IMG/VR virus record: IMGVR_UViG_2706795958_000001 | Span: 16,651 to 80,650 of that record | Source: a virus | Lineage: Duplodnaviria > Caudoviricetes | Strand: one strand, 5' to 3' | Length of the DNA stretch: 64,000 nt | Shown: positions 4,501-64,000 of the stretch, one piece after another | Layout of the letters: every line of letters begins with the position of its first letter | How positions within the stretch are numbered: position 1 is the first letter of the stretch | The notes under the pieces: model-generated | The model's input: the letters and a program-made list of their open reading frames with translations, nothing else | Told to the model about the DNA's origin: nothing | Database searches by the model: none | Translations under genes and position numbers: made by a program

Positions 4501-7500
4501 GAATATCCCCATGCTGGCTAAGCCCTTTGTTGCTATTGTTCGTGGAATTGGTGCAGCGCTTAGTAAGCTTCCGCAGCTTGTTGCAGATGTATTCAACGCT
4601 GTTGTCCGTACAATTGCCAAGGCCGCTAAGGCTGTATACAACTTCTTTAGCTACATTAATCCGTTTGCACGTCACTCGCCTTCATTGGTTGAAAATGTGC
4701 AGAACGGTATGGCTGTCGTTACTGGTGAATTTGCTGACGCTAGTAAGAAGATTCAGACTGATATCAGGTCTGCCTATGGTGCCATTTCTCAATTCGGTAG
4801 AGCTACATCGAATCTTAAGGTTCGTGCTACTACCATCGAGACAGAGGATCGTAATAAAGAGCTTAATCGTGCAGACCCATCTGGTGGCGCTGCACGGTCT
4901 TATGCTGCATTGGATGCACAGGCAAAGCGCCTTGAATCCACGATGCTCAGCCTTAATGCTACGGCACTTCGTCAGCAGCGTGTAATTGATGGTCTGGAAA
5001 ATCAGGTCAAGCAAGCCGATGCTGCTATCGAGGGTATGCAAAAGGGTCTTACTCTTTTGCAGAAAGCTGCCGATGCCACCGGTAAGGCTCTCGATGCTGC
5101 TAAGGAAAAGCTAGACTATTATGCAAGCGCACCCATTAAGGGTATGCGCGCGATGAGCGATGCCATTTTTGAAAATGAAATGGCACAGAAGCGACTTCGT
5201 CTGGAAATCCTTAAGCTTGAAGATGCTGGCGAAAGCATTGATAGCCTGGAAGATAAGTTCGCCCGTTTGCAGGGTCAGATTGAAACCCTGTCCGGAACTC
5301 GCATGGAATTGCAGTCTAAGGGTGCAGGTTCAGATGTTCTTGCTACCTATGACAAGATGATTGCTGATCTTAAGTCTCAGCAAAATGCCGCGCTTGAAGG
5401 TCCGTCCACCGAGGTCGAAAAACTTAATAAGCAACTAGATGAATTGGGCCGAAAGGGTGAGCGCCTCGACCTGGAAAACTCTCTTAAGTTTGATCCGCTT
5501 ACTCGTCAGATTGAGCAACTAGTCAACAACGAGAAGGAACTGGATTTCAGCACTATTGTTGCCGGTGTTACCACATACAAGTCTGCTGTTTCTGGTCTGA
5601 CTATTGCTAATGATTTTGCTACCGCTGCCGTTGAGGCTCAGCAGTTGGCAATTGATGCTGCAACTGAATCTCGTGATGCACTTAATTCTCGCCTTGATGT
5701 TGAGAAGAATAAGCTTGACCAAGTAAAGAGCGCTTATGACGCCACTTCCACTGCTGTCGATGATACTCGCGCAGCAATGGATGAAATCACTCAGGCTGCC
5801 AGTACAGTAAATGCACGCCTTGATGAGATTGAGCAGGCGCAAAAAGAGGCTGCCGATGCAGCTAAGGAACATGCGGATGCAATTGATGCTGCCGGTGACG
5901 CTCTCGGTGATATGGCTGAAATTGATACCGAGCTTCCTGAGGTTGATAGCGCTGCGCTAGAAAACAGTCTGGGTAACCTCTTCCCTGATGTTTCTAAGAA
6001 GCTGGAAGAGTTTGGAACCAAGATAAAGAATTGGTTCAAGGGTCTTCCGCAGAAGATTGTTGACGAACTTAAAGAGCTTGGCCCTAAGATCGGCACATTC
6101 CTTATGGGATTGCCTGGTGAAATTGCGGGCGCTCTTGCATTCCTTCTCGGTTATATTATCGGTCTTATTGGCCGGGGTATTGTCGAGAGTACCAAGCTTA
6201 TGCTTGGTGGACTCAAGCTGTTCTTCTACGATATTCCCAAGAATATCGGCGAGTGGCTTGCGGGAATTGACTGGGAATCGGTTCGTACTAATGTAGTTAA
6301 TTTCATTAAGGGTCTATTTACCGGTGAAAGCTGGGCTAAGGCTGGAGAATGGCTGCTTGACGTCGGTGGAGATATTATCGGTGGCCTGTTCAAGGGTATT
6401 GGTAATGTTCTGCTTAATGTCACAACCTGGATCAAAGAGAATATCGTTGATAGATTTATCAACGGTATTAAAGAGGGATTTGAAATTCAGTCCCCATCCA
6501 AGGTTATGGCACGCATTGGCGTTGACATTATTCTTGGCCTTCTTAATGGTATCGTTGAAAAAGCGCAAGACCTCTGGAATTGGATCACCGGCCTGGCCGG
6601 AACGGTCCGGGAGAAGCTTGGCAATGCGCGTGATTTCTTGTGGCAAAAGGGCAAGGATATCATTCAGGGCCTTAAAGACGCCGCCGTTGAAAAGTGGAAC
6701 GAATTCCTGGACTGGGTTAAGGGTCTACCAGGTCAGATTAAGGATAAGCTTGGTAATCTTAAGAATACCCTCTTTGAGGCAGGAAAGGATCTCATTCGAG
6801 GTCTGATTGATGGTGCTGGCGATCTTCTTAAGAATATCGCACAGATGTTTGCGGATAAAATTCCCAATAAGATAATCCGCGAAGGCTTTAAGCGTGCAAT
6901 GGGTATCGCTTCTCCGTCTAAGGTTTTCACCGAATTTGGTACAAATATTGGTGAAGGTCTCGTTATTGGCATGGAGAATCAGCTTGCTGATATCACTTCT
7001 GCGAGCAACGCATTGTCTGACGCGGCGTCTGCTGGAATAGATAATGCGGCCCCCCTATCCATCCCCGCTGTACAGGCTGCACCGGCTGCCCTTCCGGCTG
7101 CTCCGGCTGCTCCTGAGGCTGGCGCGGCCCCGGCTGCCGCTGGCCCTGATCCGGCTGCGCTCGCTGCTCAGGTGACCGCCGCCACTCAGGCCGCAACGCT
7201 GGTGTGGCAGGGTTATTACGCGAATCTGACTGTAATGCAGACTGAGCATAATGCTTTGGAATTGGTTGCTCAGAATACGCATGACCTTGCAAAGATGGCC
7301 GCATTGGTTGCGTACAATACTGCGGAATTGACTACGGTCACTTCTCAGTACACTGCTCTACTGACTGCACAGCAGACGTACTACACTACATTTACTGGAC
7401 TTTCTACCACGTTCCGTACTACTGAGCTTAATGCTCAGATTGCTTGGTACGCAAGTCAGATTACAGAGTTTAACAAGTTCTCTGCTAACTACCAGAGTGC

Positions 7501-39616: not shown

Positions 39617-40378
39617 TCACAAATTCACCGCCTCAACTAGTGCAGAATCATCCACACCCAAATACAGCTGAGTATGTGTAATCTGAGAATGCCCCAAAAG
39701 GATTTGGGTCAACCTAATGTCCTTGTGTTTGTTGTACACATGAGTTGCAAATGTAGCACGCAAGTCATGGCTCGATACCTGCTCACCGATGACATTGGTA
39801 ACACCTGCACGAGTGAATACCTTGGTAATTCCGCGCCGGGCAGATGCATTGCAAATCGGAACAAAACGCTCAGTCTCGATGCATTCCAGTTCCATTGCAA
39901 GCTCATCCGATATAGGAATACGGCGGAATTTACCACCCTTACCACGTACCATGAGCCTACCTAGAACAATATCACTTCGGGTTGCTGCAATCGTCTCGGC
40001 TACTCGCAGACCAGCGAGCGCCCCCAGAGCCACAGCCGCCCGATGAGCGCCCATCGGTGTGCTGGTCAGCACCGCGCGCACCGTCTCGATTCCTCCGGCC
40101 ACCGGGTGGGGCTGCGGCATAGGCAGTGGTGGTGCAGAATAATCGTTAATTTCCGAATTGATGATACCAGCGAATTTATTGTATGAACGGATAGCTGCAA
40201 GCATCATCTTGATATTAGATGCAGATGCGCCATACTCGCGCTCATCGGTAATCCATTCAGATTGTTCGTACCCGGAACGCTGCCATTCACTAACCTTAGT
40301 GACATACATGCGGATGGTATTACGTGACTTGCCTGTGCGGTTAAGCCATGCTTCAAACTCTTCAATCTGATTGGTCAT
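39617..40378 (-). CDS. XerC/D-like tyrosine recombinase (253 aa, no arm-binding domain)
   Basis: AGLRVAE (R), RGKGGK (K), HDLR (H..R), LLGH, TQLY (Y); RBS ACAGGAGG before ATG 40378. Confidence 0.92.
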   Translation of the reverse strand: MTNQIEEFEAWLNRTGKSRNTIRMYVTKVSEWQRSGYEQSEWITDEREYGASASNIKMMLAAIRSYNKFAGIINSEINDYSAPPLPMPQPHPVAGGIETVRAVLTSTPMGAHRAAVALGALAGLRVAETIAATRSDIVLGRLMVRGKGGKFRRIPISDELAMELECIETERFVPICNASARRGITKVFTRAGVTNVIGEQVSSHDLRATFATHVYNKHKDIRLTQILLGHSQITHTQLYLGVDDSALVEAVNL

Positions 40379-40430
40379 GGTTCCTCCTGTCTGCTCCGCG
40401 TGAGACTCACTGTATGTCATCAGTGTCGGG

Positions 40431-41129
40431 CTAGTCAACCCCCGAGAGGTTGACGAACTTGGTAGCATACGTATTATGGTATTTAACTAAATCGGTGTAG
40501 GTAATCGAATCACCATCACGCACGTACACATCTGCAAGCCAGCGGTTAAATAGGGTTGGTTTATCACCTGCATACCCATTAATGCCAATACGGTCTGTAA
40601 CGTTGGCAAGAAGTGAACGCATTGTCCAAGTATCAGAGTTCATAGTCCAGATAAAGTTATCATTATCACTATGATTTAGTGCCACGAAATCGCCTGCAAT
40701 ATCCACAGAAGGGAATGGTGTCATATTAAAGATGGTTCTACCTTCGGGAAGATTAGCCATCAAAATGGGAACGAATACACCCTTCTTTGGAATCACTGGC
40801 ATGAGAAAAGTGTAATCCTCATTGTTGTTCGTTGACAGCAATACCTTAATGCTGGATTCCACATAACCGCCGGGCTGGTACCCCTCTTCAATTCCTGGGT
40901 ACCAGATAACTTTTTCATCATCCACGCAAGAGAAGATGGATATCTCTTTAGGTGCATTATCTGAGTTCGTTTCATAGCTAACAGAACCGAATTCGCCATG
41001 ACCCATAGTCTCATTGGATAGAGTTAGTCCGAATAAGCTCATCAGTGGTCCGACGGTTGAAATCTTGTGACCGTGCTTATTAATCATCAACCATTCCTTG
41101 ATCTTTAAATACCTGCACTGCTGATTCAA
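40431..41129 (-). CDS. Hypothetical protein (start probably internal)
   Basis: Long ORF in the gene-dense strand. Confidence 0.55.
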   Translation of the reverse strand: MNQQCRYLKIKEWLMINKHGHKISTVGPLMSLFGLTLSNETMGHGEFGSVSYETNSDNAPKEISIFSCVDDEKVIWYPGIEEGYQPGGYVESSIKVLLSTNNNEDYTFLMPVIPKKGVFVPILMANLPEGRTIFNMTPFPSVDIAGDFVALNHSDNDNFIWTMNSDTWTMRSLLANVTDRIGINGYAGDKPTLFNRWLADVYVRDGDSITYTDLVKYHNTYATKFVNLSGVD

Positions 41130-56313: not shown

Positions 56314-56569
56314 CTTTGTACTTTCTCGCTTCAAAAGTAAATGGCTCAACAGGGTGACCGTCGTCAAATGATTTAATAAATCGCTTTGCAACAGAAGGCA
56401 CCCTATAATGATTAATCATTAGATCATTATGCTTGCTTGCTGATATTTCAAATGTAGAAACTTCTACATTATTAAATCCTTTTTCTTTTAATGCCAATGC
56501 AATAGGACAGTTGCATATTTCCCACCGTTTGCCCTTATCAATGTGTTCCTGGGTTACTGTTACTTTCAT
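56303..56569 (-). CDS. Small protein, paralog of 55680..55940
   Basis: MKVTVTQE.I..G...CPIALA...FIKSFDDG..VEPFTFE. Confidence 0.7.
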   Translation of the reverse strand: MKVTVTQEHIDKGKRWEICNCPIALALKEKGFNNVEVSTFEISASKHNDLMINHYRVPSVAKRFIKSFDDGHPVEPFTFEARKYKDEN

Positions 56570-60219: not shown

Positions 60220-61281
60220 TCAGGCGATAGCTACCTGTACCATCTTCCACAATTCTTCATCCAAAGCGTCAAACTTGCCCTTAATGCGTGCTTCAGAATT
60301 GCGCTCGTAACGCGATGCTTCCCCACGAATTTCGGACGCATGATGAGCGAACGTGTTTCCTGTCTGGACAAGTCCAAGGGCAGTACCGGACCAATCTGCA
60401 CACATTGCATCATGACGGTACATATCAAGGAATTTGTCGCGCTTGTTTTCCGTGCGCGTGTATCCTTTGCCTTTTTCATCCGGCAACGGTGCCCAAGCAT
60501 CGAGAAACGCGAACAATTGCGCGTCGTCAATCTCAATATCGCTCAGCATGTGAATCTGGTCTGTGTACAGTTCGATACCGTTTTCAACCAATCCCAATGC
60601 TTCGCGTGCCTGGTCAATTTTTGCGTTGGAATGCTTAGTGTGCTTGATCTTAAAGAAACGTCCATCCCTTTTCATCTCACCAAGCGCTACCGCGCGAGTA
60701 TTGTCACAGACAGTTTGAGTAATGGTTAGTCCGTGGGTAGTGGCGCATGAACCATCGAGAGCGGTAGTGGCAAGGTAATTGCTACGGAATGCCATACCGG
60801 TTTTAGCGTCGTGAATTGTCTCAGGAATGGAGAACTCTACCCAAGCAACGGCACCGCCCTTGAGAAGTCCGGCCGACGATGGTTGCAGAGTTTCACCGAT
60901 AACGTTGCTTGCAAGTCCAATGAGCCAATCGCGGTAATCATGCACTGCGTAAGAATCACTGTGCAGACCAATTGTGCGGTAATTGTCCGATCGAACAATT
61001 GCCATTTTTCCCGGTACTAGAACGTTAACTACAGGATTACCGTATGAGTCAATGCCGGTAGCGTGTTCTGCATTATCGGTCGGGACTTCTGCATGAATGG
61101 GGACCTGCAACGGTTCCCAATTAAACAAGCGACGATTGATATCGGCGACCGGGATAGCCCCGGAGTAATGGTTAGACTCTGCACCCTGATATGCGGCGTC
61201 ATAATGCCATGCGTGACCACGCTGGTCGGTGAATCCGACCAGGACGTTCGTGTTCAATGTTTCAATGCTCTCAGAGGACAT
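60220..61281 (-). CDS. DUF932/DUF945 (TIGR03299-like) phage/plasmid protein
   Basis: SAG.LKGG.VAW, YL.TT.LDGS, R.VC.NT-like TVCDNT, KHT, GTA.GL.Q. Confidence 0.85.
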   Translation of the reverse strand: MSSESIETLNTNVLVGFTDQRGHAWHYDAAYQGAESNHYSGAIPVADINRRLFNWEPLQVPIHAEVPTDNAEHATGIDSYGNPVVNVLVPGKMAIVRSDNYRTIGLHSDSYAVHDYRDWLIGLASNVIGETLQPSSAGLLKGGAVAWVEFSIPETIHDAKTGMAFRSNYLATTALDGSCATTHGLTITQTVCDNTRAVALGEMKRDGRFFKIKHTKHSNAKIDQAREALGLVENGIELYTDQIHMLSDIEIDDAQLFAFLDAWAPLPDEKGKGYTRTENKRDKFLDMYRHDAMCADWSGTALGLVQTGNTFAHHASEIRGEASRYERNSEARIKGKFDALDEELWKMVQVAIA

Positions 61282-61315
61282 AATTGTTTCTCCTGTGTGT
61301 TGTGTGGTGATGGTT

Positions 61316-61368
61316 TGAATCCATCGCTAGCTATTGGGTTGGTTATCCCAATAGCTAGGGTTGATTCA
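61316..61368 (-). repeat. Conserved hairpin element copy 1
   Basis: TGAATCAACCCTAG-stem-CTAGCGATGGATTCA. Confidence 0.85.
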
Positions 61369-61449
61369 GTCCGGTAATGCGTACTCGCACCAAATGAACA
61401 ATGGTGCGAGTATGACCAGTGCGAGAACTAACGCGTATTGCCAACTCAT
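61366..61449 (-). CDS. 27-aa hydrophobic peptide
   Basis: MSWQYALVLALVILAPLFIWCEYALPD; ATGA overlap; its stop is the TGA of the hairpin element. Confidence 0.5.
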   Translation of the reverse strand: MSWQYALVLALVILAPLFIWCEYALPD

Positions 61450-61751
61450 GACGCATTCCATGCCGGTCGTCGATGCTTGCCATTGTCGGAATAAGGTTCA
61501 TCGCCTAACAATTCACCGTTAGTTCCGATACTGTCTAGCATCCCCTCGAATTCAACGATATTGGGAGTCAGTTCTCTGTCATTGCCCATAATCGCGAAAC
61601 TATGTCGTGGTCGCTTTTCGTAATTGTCTGCCCTACGTCCACGCTCAGGATCAATACCCAAACAACGGTTAAGCTTTTCGTGATAGCCCATTGTGCGCCC
61701 TGTGTTGGTCTGTGAGCGCTTGACGAGGTTGACTTGGTACTTGGTAGCCAT
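61446..61751 (-). CDS. Hypothetical early protein
   Basis: CAGACAGGAGAA RBS. Confidence 0.65.
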   Translation of the reverse strand: MATKYQVNLVKRSQTNTGRTMGYHEKLNRCLGIDPERGRRADNYEKRPRHSFAIMGNDRELTPNIVEFEGMLDSIGTNGELLGDEPYSDNGKHRRPAWNAS

Positions 61752-61809
61752 GATGGTTTGTTCTCCTGTCTGCGACGCTGTGAGCGTCTTCTGTGTGAGT
61801 GATAGACCT

Positions 61810-61864
61810 TGAATCCATCGCTAGGCGCATGTTTCACGTGAAACATGCGCCTAAGGTTGATTCA
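61810..61864 (-). repeat. Conserved hairpin element copy 2, containing a parS site
   Basis: TGAATCAACCTTAG-GCGCATGTTTCACGTGAAACATGCGC-CTAGCGATGGATTCA. Confidence 0.85.
61830..61845. promoter_or_regulatory. parS: parS (ParB-binding site), consensus match
   Basis: TGTTTCACGTGAAACA. Confidence 0.85.
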
Positions 61865-62161
61865 CGGTTCGGCGCGCAAAATTCCTTCTACCGCTCCGCG
61901 TGCCTTGTATCCGCTAATGGTGTGAGTCATGAAACTCACGTGAGCCGCACGGACTGTGCCACCGACGTACTCGACTTTCATGGTGTCTGTGTCGCCCTGT
62001 GAATCCGTGCGACTGTAAACCATCGTGACCAGAGGGAAGTCTGCACGCTTAAATGTGAATTCCTCACACTCAATGATCCAACTGTTTTCGTCGGCCAGAC
62101 GATTGATACCGCGCACGACAGGATGGAAGGAAATACCGTCAAGTTCCTGTGTAAATGCCAT
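61862..62161 (-). CDS. Hypothetical early protein
   Basis: CACAGGAGAA RBS; stop inside hairpin element. Confidence 0.65.
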   Translation of the reverse strand: MAFTQELDGISFHPVVRGINRLADENSWIIECEEFTFKRADFPLVTMVYSRTDSQGDTDTMKVEYVGGTVRAAHVSFMTHTISGYKARGAVEGILRAEP

Positions 62162-62193
62162 TGTCTTTTCTCCTGTGTTGTGTGAATTCCGAT

Positions 62194-62250
62194 TGAATCC
62201 ATCGCTAGGTCACAGGGTTAAGGGATAACCCTGTGCCTAAGGTTGATTCA
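62194..62250 (-). repeat. Conserved hairpin element copy 3
   Basis: TGAATCAACCTTAG-stem-CTAGCGATGGATTCA. Confidence 0.85.
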
Positions 62251-62463
62251 GTCTGTGAGTACCAGTCGAACATGTGAGTATCGAATTGAATCGGTATCGA
62301 CGATTACTCCATTGGCTAGTACCAAGTCGATACGCAGTGAATCATTGTTCGGGTACTTAATGTCCACTACCTTATCGGCGCGCTTATTCCTGTGATCAAA
62401 AACGATTACGTCCCCACGACGAATGCGATTGTTCGGGACCATTACCGTATTGAGCTTTCCCAT
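62248..62463 (-). CDS. Hypothetical early protein (first gene of the leftward early operon)
   Basis: CACACAGGAGAA RBS before ATG 62463. Confidence 0.65.
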   Translation of the reverse strand: MGKLNTVMVPNNRIRRGDVIVFDHRNKRADKVVDIKYPNNDSLRIDLVLANGVIVDTDSIRYSHVRLVLTD

Positions 62464-62728
62464 TGTTTCTTCTCCTGTGTGGGTTGAATGGTTCGCAGGT
62501 AATGCGGATATCGGTTGCCTTGGTACGGCACGCCTACCCGCATTACCTAGGTACATTCAAACCTGTGACAGACCATTAAACGGATGATGCATCATGTGCA
62601 GCGCATACGCTGGACTGTCCTCGCCGGATCACTCTGTTGACTTTTCAAGGTTCACGCGTGAGTCGGGACTTGCGCGCACATGGCTCGCGCCGCGTGCCCT
62701 GCCCTACTCACTAACAACTCATATCACC

Positions 62729-62757
62729 TTTATACACACCGACTGACATGCGTGCAA
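62729..62757 (-). promoter_or_regulatory. Candidate early promoter
   Basis: TTGCAC-17 nt-TATAAA with TG extension; -7 base is non-consensus. Confidence 0.4.
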
Positions 62758-62794
62758 TACCTAGCTAGAAAATTCTCGCACAAGTGCTGCGCAG

Positions 62795-62810
62795 TGTTTC
62801 ACGTGAAACA
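62795..62810. promoter_or_regulatory. parS: parS (ParB-binding site), consensus match
   Basis: TGTTTCACGTGAAACA. Confidence 0.85.
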
Positions 62811-63179: not shown

Positions 63180-64000
63180 AGGGTGCCCTATCTACGTAGG
63201 TATGTGCATATACGTAGGGCACTGTGTATACACACGTACCTACGTATGCGCAGTGCCCTACGTATGGTTATGTATCAAGCATTGTATTAGGTGAACAGTG
63301 AATGGGTTATGTATCAAGCATTGTATTAAGTGTGTAATGATTAGGCTTTGTATTAACCATTGTATTAAGTGAATGTATTATGCACGTAATTAAACACTGT
63401 GATTATTAGTGTCCTACCAGTGTGGTCAGCGACTGCCCTTAAAGTGGTGGGTATTAAAGGGAGTGGCTTTAAATAGGTGGGTATTAAAAGGGGACGCATT
63501 AAAGGGCATGATTAAAGGAAAGGCTTAAGTAATGTGTGAGCATGAAACGTCAGCGAGAAGATCACAAGGGTGATAATTCGGTTCGGTGAATTGGGATTAA
63601 CTGAAAGTAATCGGTATTGCTATGTTTGTTCGGTTAATTGGGATTAATTGAAGTGTCACGTTCTTTTGATTAATGGGTAATTGTTGAATCGGTGTATTAA
63701 GGGGATTACGAAATATGGGCAAAGAAATAGGGGATATGAAAACGGGGGATTACTCGAATTTCTCGCATTTACTTTTGTTTTGAATTCGCGCGAAATTCGA
63801 TCAGCATTCCGTGAATTCTTGCCGAATTCATGGGAATGGTGGGTAATGGCATTTCTCGAATTCCATAAATGATACCGGGATATCGAATTCTGGCCCATTT
63901 ATCTATTCCGTCGACCATGCTCGATAACGTCGGTTATCGCGCAGGGCATTCGATATGGGATTAATTTTTTGGAAAGGGGAGAGGTCGAAAAGCGGCGCTC
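63180..64000. repeat. Non-coding repeat-rich region, probably near the genome end
   Basis: 28-bp direct repeat x2 (63266, 63305), ATTAAAG-like runs, five GAATTC in 109 bp. Confidence 0.7.

Follow-up and report, generated by a model that had tools for sequence, protein, structure and literature searches.

Candidate host-type parS sites near the right genome end of Gordonia phage Orchid, a phage without recognisable partition genes

ParB proteins nucleate at parS, close into CTP-dependent clamps and recruit ParA and SMC. According to PMC2731898, which refers to Meijer et al. 2005, the virulent Bacillus phage phi29 has five host-type parS sites that are bound by the host protein Spo0J, Spo0J is involved in segregating the phi29 genome into the prespore, and host-type parS sites have also been mapped in the phi29 relative Nf. 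Phi29, without a ParA or ParB, carries several copies of the host chromosomal parS and thereby exploits a host protein of the ParB family. Orchid, the Gordonia phage described here, resembles it in combining multiple host-consensus parS sites with an absence of partition genes. Nevertheless, phi29 is a protein-primed podophage of a spore-former, whereas Orchid is an 80-kb siphovirus with terminal repeats and a non-sporulating actinobacterial host; furthermore, its two sites lie within 1 kb of each other at one genome end, and one of them is built into an RNA-type hairpin. The purpose documented for the phi29 sites is prespore segregation, whereas those of Orchid are putative ParB loading sites.

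Temperate actinophages of Subclusters A6 and A15 harbour parABS cassettes, with their own ParA and ParB and their own parS (Pope et al. 2017, PMC5559632). Like these phages and the plasmid prophages of the P1/N15 type, Orchid has centromere-like sites on its genome; unlike them, it has neither partition gene, and its sites display the sequence of the host. In N15, the centromere sites are dispersed near regulatory regions. As for the chromosomal parS of actinobacteria (Mycobacterium, Corynebacterium, Streptomyces and G. terrae), the Orchid sites share with them an identical 16-bp consensus and the arrangement as a small cluster within about 1 kb, but they belong to a phage genome, unlinked to oriC and without parAB in cis, and their copy number would rise with phage replication. 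We found no description of host-type parS on actinophages in the literature searched. The principle of host-type parS on a phage is already published for phi29 (PMC2731898), and the Orchid case is not a new principle; the novelty implied by an earlier, sequence-only reading of this DNA was thus overstated.

The stretch of DNA analysed in this work, hereafter the window, is 64,000 nucleotides long and corresponds to positions 16,651-80,650 of a virus record that has 80,650 bp and direct terminal repeats and matches Gordonia phage Orchid. Orchid belongs to Cluster CX, and its host is G. terrae 3612 (Pope et al. 2017, PMC5559632). Its genome has a G+C content of 47% and a 249-bp terminal repeat, whose right copy occupies positions 63752..64000 of the window. 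A scan of the window identified TGTTTCACGTGAAACA as an exact match at 61830-61845 (parS-1) and 62795-62810 (parS-2), and the same two sites were the sole matches when up to two mismatches were allowed. The sequence-only reading had reported two perfect sites at these positions; both are indeed exact, and they are the only ones in the whole 80,650-bp Orchid genome, even with two mismatches. Both match the chromosomal parS consensus TGTTNCACGTGAAACA, the string used as consensus in the literature, at 16/16 positions. With dinucleotide-preserving shuffles the expected number of matches was 0.02 and 0/100 shuffles yielded two, which rules out a chance origin of the two exact sites. The interval that they delimit (61830-62810) corresponds to Orchid positions 78,480-79,460, and the distances to the right genome end are 2,170 bp for parS-1 and 1,205 bp for parS-2. 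Apart from the parS sites, the genome has a single perfect 16-bp palindrome, TAATGATTAATCATTA, at window positions 56406-56421. Both parS sites are identical in Gibbles, a Gordonia phage of the genus Orchidvirus that shares 94.8% identity with Orchid over the right end. As identity rises to 99% across the parS region, this conservation within Cluster CX is uninformative; of the close relatives of Orchid, which also include Kampe and PatrickStar, our comparison within the cluster covers Gibbles.

The sites are set at the start of a block of leftward genes. Minus-strand genes run from about 62,560 leftwards, beginning with three small ORFs of 71, 99 and 101 aa (61446..62463, genes 119-117 in Gibbles), which are bracketed or interrupted by both sites. 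These three genes have no Pfam match and only one PHROG, of unknown function. They are followed directly downstream by a gene for a DUF932 protein (60220-61281, minus strand), homologues of which, with 37-51% identity, are found in about 280 records of actinophages and other phages, often at the same right-arm position. parS-1 tips an intergenic hairpin, as the earlier reading had noticed, in the gap that separates the 99-aa gene from the 101-aa gene. The hairpin module is 56 nt long (61809..61864, minus strand; direct-repeat families D6 and D11), has the base TTGAATCCATCGCTAGG ... CCTAAGGTTGATTCA and is predicted to fold as RNA with -34.6 kcal/mol (z -8.2); parS-1 is the centre of a 32-bp perfect palindrome within it, with arms at 61822-61837 and 61838-61853. 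Two sister hairpins on the same strand, at 62193..62253 (z -5.8) and 61315..61371 (z -7.8), have the same base but other tips, without parS, and the tips of the three modules are unrelated. A fourth long hairpin with a different base (62482..62563, minus strand; inverted repeat I2; -39.2 kcal/mol, z -5.5) is found directly upstream of the ribosome-binding site of the first gene. All four modules fold far better than shuffled sequences (z -5.5 to -8.2). This arrangement of four strong hairpin modules between the first genes (window 61315-62563) has the same design in the Woes-type phages described below, with another base, and it suggests that the modules act at the RNA level, independently of parS, in processing, stability or attenuation.

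The context of parS-2 is different. Located in the 1.5-kb non-coding right end, with 332 bp separating it from the first leftward gene downstream, it is part of no significant RNA fold (z -0.7). It had been proposed to lie about 38 bp upstream of a putative first early promoter. Promoter-like boxes can indeed be read by eye (TTGCAC, 17 nt, TATAAA; 62757-62729, minus strand), although this candidate leftward promoter was not called by a consensus promoter scan. A terminator-like stem followed by a T-run (62777..62793, minus strand) is located between parS-2 and the candidate promoter. The region between parS-2 and the terminal repeat (window 63190-63720) contains a large composite palindrome (63193-63265) and short direct-repeat arrays, namely 39-nt units at 63266-63382, GGTGGGTATTAAAGGG-type units at 63439-63506 and GTTCGGTGAATTGGGATTAA units at 63581-63652. 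Analogous tandem arrays are found at the same relative place in Woes (L210, about 6290-6500). These right-end arrays may be replication origin or packaging signals.

Which protein might read the sites depends first on what the phage itself encodes. Searches with ParB_N, AAA_31 and CbiA in six frames of the whole Orchid genome gave no match at E<=10, with positive controls, and the same searches found none in Gibbles or Woes either. The absence of parAB first noted for the window thus extends to the entire genome, left arm included, and a phage ParA or ParB hidden in the left arm outside the window is ruled out, as it is in Gibbles and Woes. The annotations of Gibbles include no repressor, ParA or ParB. 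Orchid has no parABS cassette, with neither a parA or parB of its own nor an element-specific parS beside parB; its sites are of the host consensus and are set among small genes without known family. When all Orchid ORFs of at least 45 aa were compared with 11 genomes by tblastn, none was restricted to parS-bearing phages. Similarly, no Woes gene was found to co-vary with parS when the Woes ORFs were compared with four Gordonia phages without perfect parS and with Orchid. As no phage gene co-varies with the sites, a host reader, ParB, is favoured over a phage reader.

The host chromosome offers the matching sequence. In the complete chromosome of G. terrae B62, a stretch of 1.4 kb, some 4 kb from the record end, contains four sites in which the 14-bp core is intact. 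A single site is the perfect 16-mer, the other three deviating only at an outer base; by position, one is inside parA and three are found between gidB and jag, in a parB-parA-gidB-jag-yidC neighbourhood. More broadly, parS is present in 24/26 Gordonia genomes, with one to five sites at up to one mismatch, and multiple sites are mostly clustered within 1-2 kb. A host parS of another sequence would have spoken against the sequence-only reading, but G. terrae has the same 16-mer. The phage sequence and the host origin region resemble each other over no more than 15-19 nt, those of the site itself. The phage sites are therefore not captured host DNA, and an origin of this kind from the parAB-gidB-jag region is ruled out.

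We scanned 24 related phage genomes for parS, allowing two mismatches, and a second lineage with such sites emerged, made up of lytic phages that are only distant relatives of Orchid. Woes, a Gordonia phage of Cluster CS3 (genus Woesvirus) with a genome of 73,752 bp, 59% G+C and a 184-bp terminal repeat, has two perfect parS sites at 71,019 and 71,440, i.e. 2.3-2.7 kb from its right end. Its core genes share about 30-45% amino acid identity with those of Orchid, and we found no homology between the proteins encoded next to parS in the two phages. Both Woes sites are the tips of intergenic hairpins that flank gene 90, among the first leftward genes. The stems adjacent to parS differ between the two Woes sites and from that of Orchid, and the hairpin base is unrelated to the Orchid base, whereas the 16-mer is identical. 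Of the four phage sites examined, parS-1 of Orchid and both sites of Woes tip strongly folding modules (z -4.8 to -8.8). Woes thus resembles Orchid in having two host-type sites near the right end, at hairpin tips, among the first leftward genes and without ParAB; it differs in that both sites are inside the operon, on other hairpin bases and with non-homologous neighbours, and in that it has no tyrosine recombinase (integrase). The same end of the genome bears the sites in both lineages, within its first 1-3 kb. Such recurrence with unrelated flanks supports recruitment of host ParB.

The trait is polymorphic in the Woes genus. Hairpin A is unchanged in 17 distinct Woes-type isolates; for hairpin B, ten isolates show no change and nine a single mismatch. 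Both sites are perfect in Shelley. In Teal (MK878903, position 71,396) and Bianmat (ON970588, position 71,621), site B has a central G-to-A change inside parS, giving TGTTTCACATGAAACA. One Gordonia genome (G031) has this same variant among its clustered chromosomal parS sites, and the variant may therefore still bind ParB. Lahirium and Anamika, of the same genus, have the same hairpin base with another tip and no parS at up to two mismatches. Woes and Lahirium are collinear, with 94.6-99.1% identity over most of the genome and 89% in the last 0.8 kb. The exceptions in the right arm are a short interruption near 62.6 kb and the block made of parS, gene 90 and parS (L210, 4500-4960; Woes 71,001-71,457), which has no counterpart in Lahirium, where a single hairpin with another tip is found instead. 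The difference fits a cassette exchange at the hairpin modules. Since relatives keep the hairpin with other tips, parS behaves as an exchangeable accessory cassette that is gained and lost and is not essential. No parS was found at up to two mismatches in the Cluster DF phages GMA3, Jumbo, GordTnk2, Gmala1, GordDuk1 and Camerico, nor in three Rhodococcus phages, Demosthenesvirus, Montyvirus and Getseptimavirus. Among related phages, which the sequence-only reading had suggested scanning, the right-end placement recurs in the Woes lineage, and the other relatives just named have no site.

We consider that the two palindromes are probably genuine loading sites for the host chromosomal ParB, on the genome of a phage that itself lacks partition genes. 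The earlier interpretation is partly supported; its core, the recruitment of host ParB through host-type parS, is backed in silico by the match to the host consensus, the lack of a phage ParAB, the end of host similarity at the site itself and the recurrence with unrelated flanks, and segregation, protection and ParB titration, which it listed, are possible purposes. In such a scheme, once the right genome end enters the cell, host ParB dimers would nucleate on both sites, close into CTP clamps and slide onto the neighbouring DNA. A small assembly resembling a partition complex would form over the region of the first genes, and it could engage ParA and SMC. By analogy with phi29, the purpose that we prefer is that this complex might tie the phage genome to the origin-segregation and polar machinery of the host, so that the genome would be positioned and inherited during delayed lytic growth, as in pseudolysogeny or a carrier state. 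Early transcription and the pool of free ParB might be affected in addition. The location at a hairpin tip is best explained by compatibility, a palindromic site replacing the tip while the stem is kept; in these tightly packed operons, the short non-coding stretches that separate the first genes consist mostly of hairpin modules.

Several points limit how far the comparison with phi29 can be taken. Gordonia is non-sporulating, and the purpose documented for phi29 is therefore not simply transferable. What a lytic phage would gain from parS is not obvious. In vitro, ParB clamps slide off DNA whose ends are free; with only 1.2-2.2 kb between the sites and a linear end, accumulation of ParB may need circularised, concatemeric or end-blocked DNA. 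As for lifestyle, Orchid has a tyrosine recombinase and no annotated repressor, and the Woes-type phages belong to Cluster CS, which Pope et al. 2017 (PMC5559632) count among the clusters without temperate features. The framing of the trait as one of temperate phages, adopted in the earlier reading, is thus weak, since its bearers in Cluster CS have neither temperate features nor an integrase.

Alternatively, host ParB might serve as a borrowed transcription factor or roadblock that represses, insulates or times the first operon instead of positioning DNA, a possible though unlikely role that overlaps with our preferred explanation because it still requires ParB binding. parS-2 is directly upstream of the candidate promoter and the terminator-like stem, and parS-1 as well as both Woes sites are inside the first transcription unit. 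There are parallels elsewhere, inasmuch as ParB at a high-affinity parS represses adjacent promoters in Pseudomonas (10.1101/151340), and phi29 uses the host protein Spo0A in this manner (PMC2731898). Nevertheless, the promoter in question is the one that the scan did not call, and neither Woes site is at the upstream end of the operon. That chromosomal ParB usually affects transcription only mildly also counts against such a role.

The same binding could be directed at the host rather than at the phage. Acting as a sink, the sites of the replicating phage would drain ParB from the host origin and disturb chromosome segregation, SMC loading or division. The numbers are compatible with it: the host has four sites, and Gordonia one to five, so a few dozen phage copies would outnumber them, and all 16 bp of the consensus are present in the phage sites, against a deviation at an outer base in three of the four sites of the host. 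We nonetheless regard a sink as improbable. Loss of ParB function within one lytic cycle would bring no evident gain for the phage, titration leaves the placement in the first 1-3 kb of the same end in two lineages unexplained, and the trait is dispensable among close relatives.

It might also be proposed that the sites, the recombinase and the right-end repeat arrays together partition an extrachromosomal prophage by means of host ParAB. Orchid and Gibbles do encode a tyrosine recombinase without an arm-binding region. The compact Orchid protein (283-aa ORF, 39617-40468, minus strand) matches Pfam over the catalytic domain only, and its Gibbles homologue, of 253 aa, is annotated as a tyrosine integrase. 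The arrays between parS-2 and the terminal repeat are iteron-like, and in B. subtilis a chromosomal parS placed on an unstable plasmid suffices for Spo0J/Soj-dependent stabilisation. However, the presence of the recombinase does not follow that of parS: it is found, at about 40% identity, in the DF phages Jumbo, Camerico and GMA3, which have no parS, whereas Woes has parS and no recombinase. This distribution rules out a linkage between parS and the tyrosine recombinase and weakens the view of recombinase, parS and repeat arrays as one plasmid-maintenance module. With no temperate features in Cluster CS and no annotated repressor in Gibbles, plasmid-prophage maintenance is very doubtful. Finally, that the 16-mer is in practice no ParB site but an interchangeable RNA-level hairpin tip (for processing, stability or attenuation) or an operator for a phage protein that has escaped recognition is highly improbable, in spite of the three of four sites that tip strongly folding modules and of the unrelated tips of sister modules and relatives, given that an arbitrary tip would not equal the exact host consensus four times, in two lineages and on different stems, that parS-2 is outside significant structure and probably outside the early transcript, that no phage gene co-varies with the sites and that a ParB-type domain is absent.

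The occurrence of such sites may not be restricted to these two lineages. Among the IMG/VR matches listed (L004-L122), with at least 119 contigs having a perfect site, 26 have two to five copies; also among the matches listed, ParB_N is absent from 17/19 contigs longer than 30 kb that were tested and from six of the seven contigs that are at least 90% complete. This census is only a lead, because single-site matches may be due to chance and contigs may be misclassified. Orphan host-type parS may thus be common in uncultured phages. One could go further and speculate, along lines that we hold to be distinctly unlikely, that host-type parS is a mobile accessory cassette of lytic actinophages that labels incoming DNA as chromosome-like. 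ParB loading on the first-entering DNA would then keep unreplicated genomes inherited through divisions of slow or stressed cells, as a non-sporulating counterpart of the spore entrapment of phi29, or would shield them from SMC-family anti-plasmid or anti-phage surveillance. If so, the many IMG/VR contigs with at least two perfect sites and no ParB would represent a general, unrecognised phage strategy.

The system is easily testable, with the host G. terrae 3612 and dozens of isolates in the SEA-PHAGES collection. The Woes-type phages provide natural near-isogenic controls, with two perfect sites in Woes and Shelley, one mutated site in Teal and none in Lahirium. If host ParB does load on these sites, they would represent a simple cis element to position or stabilise DNA in Gordonia and related mycolic-acid bacteria. 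Furthermore, the borrowing of a host centromere protein would then extend beyond phi29 to lytic phages of non-sporulating actinobacteria, where it would serve another purpose.
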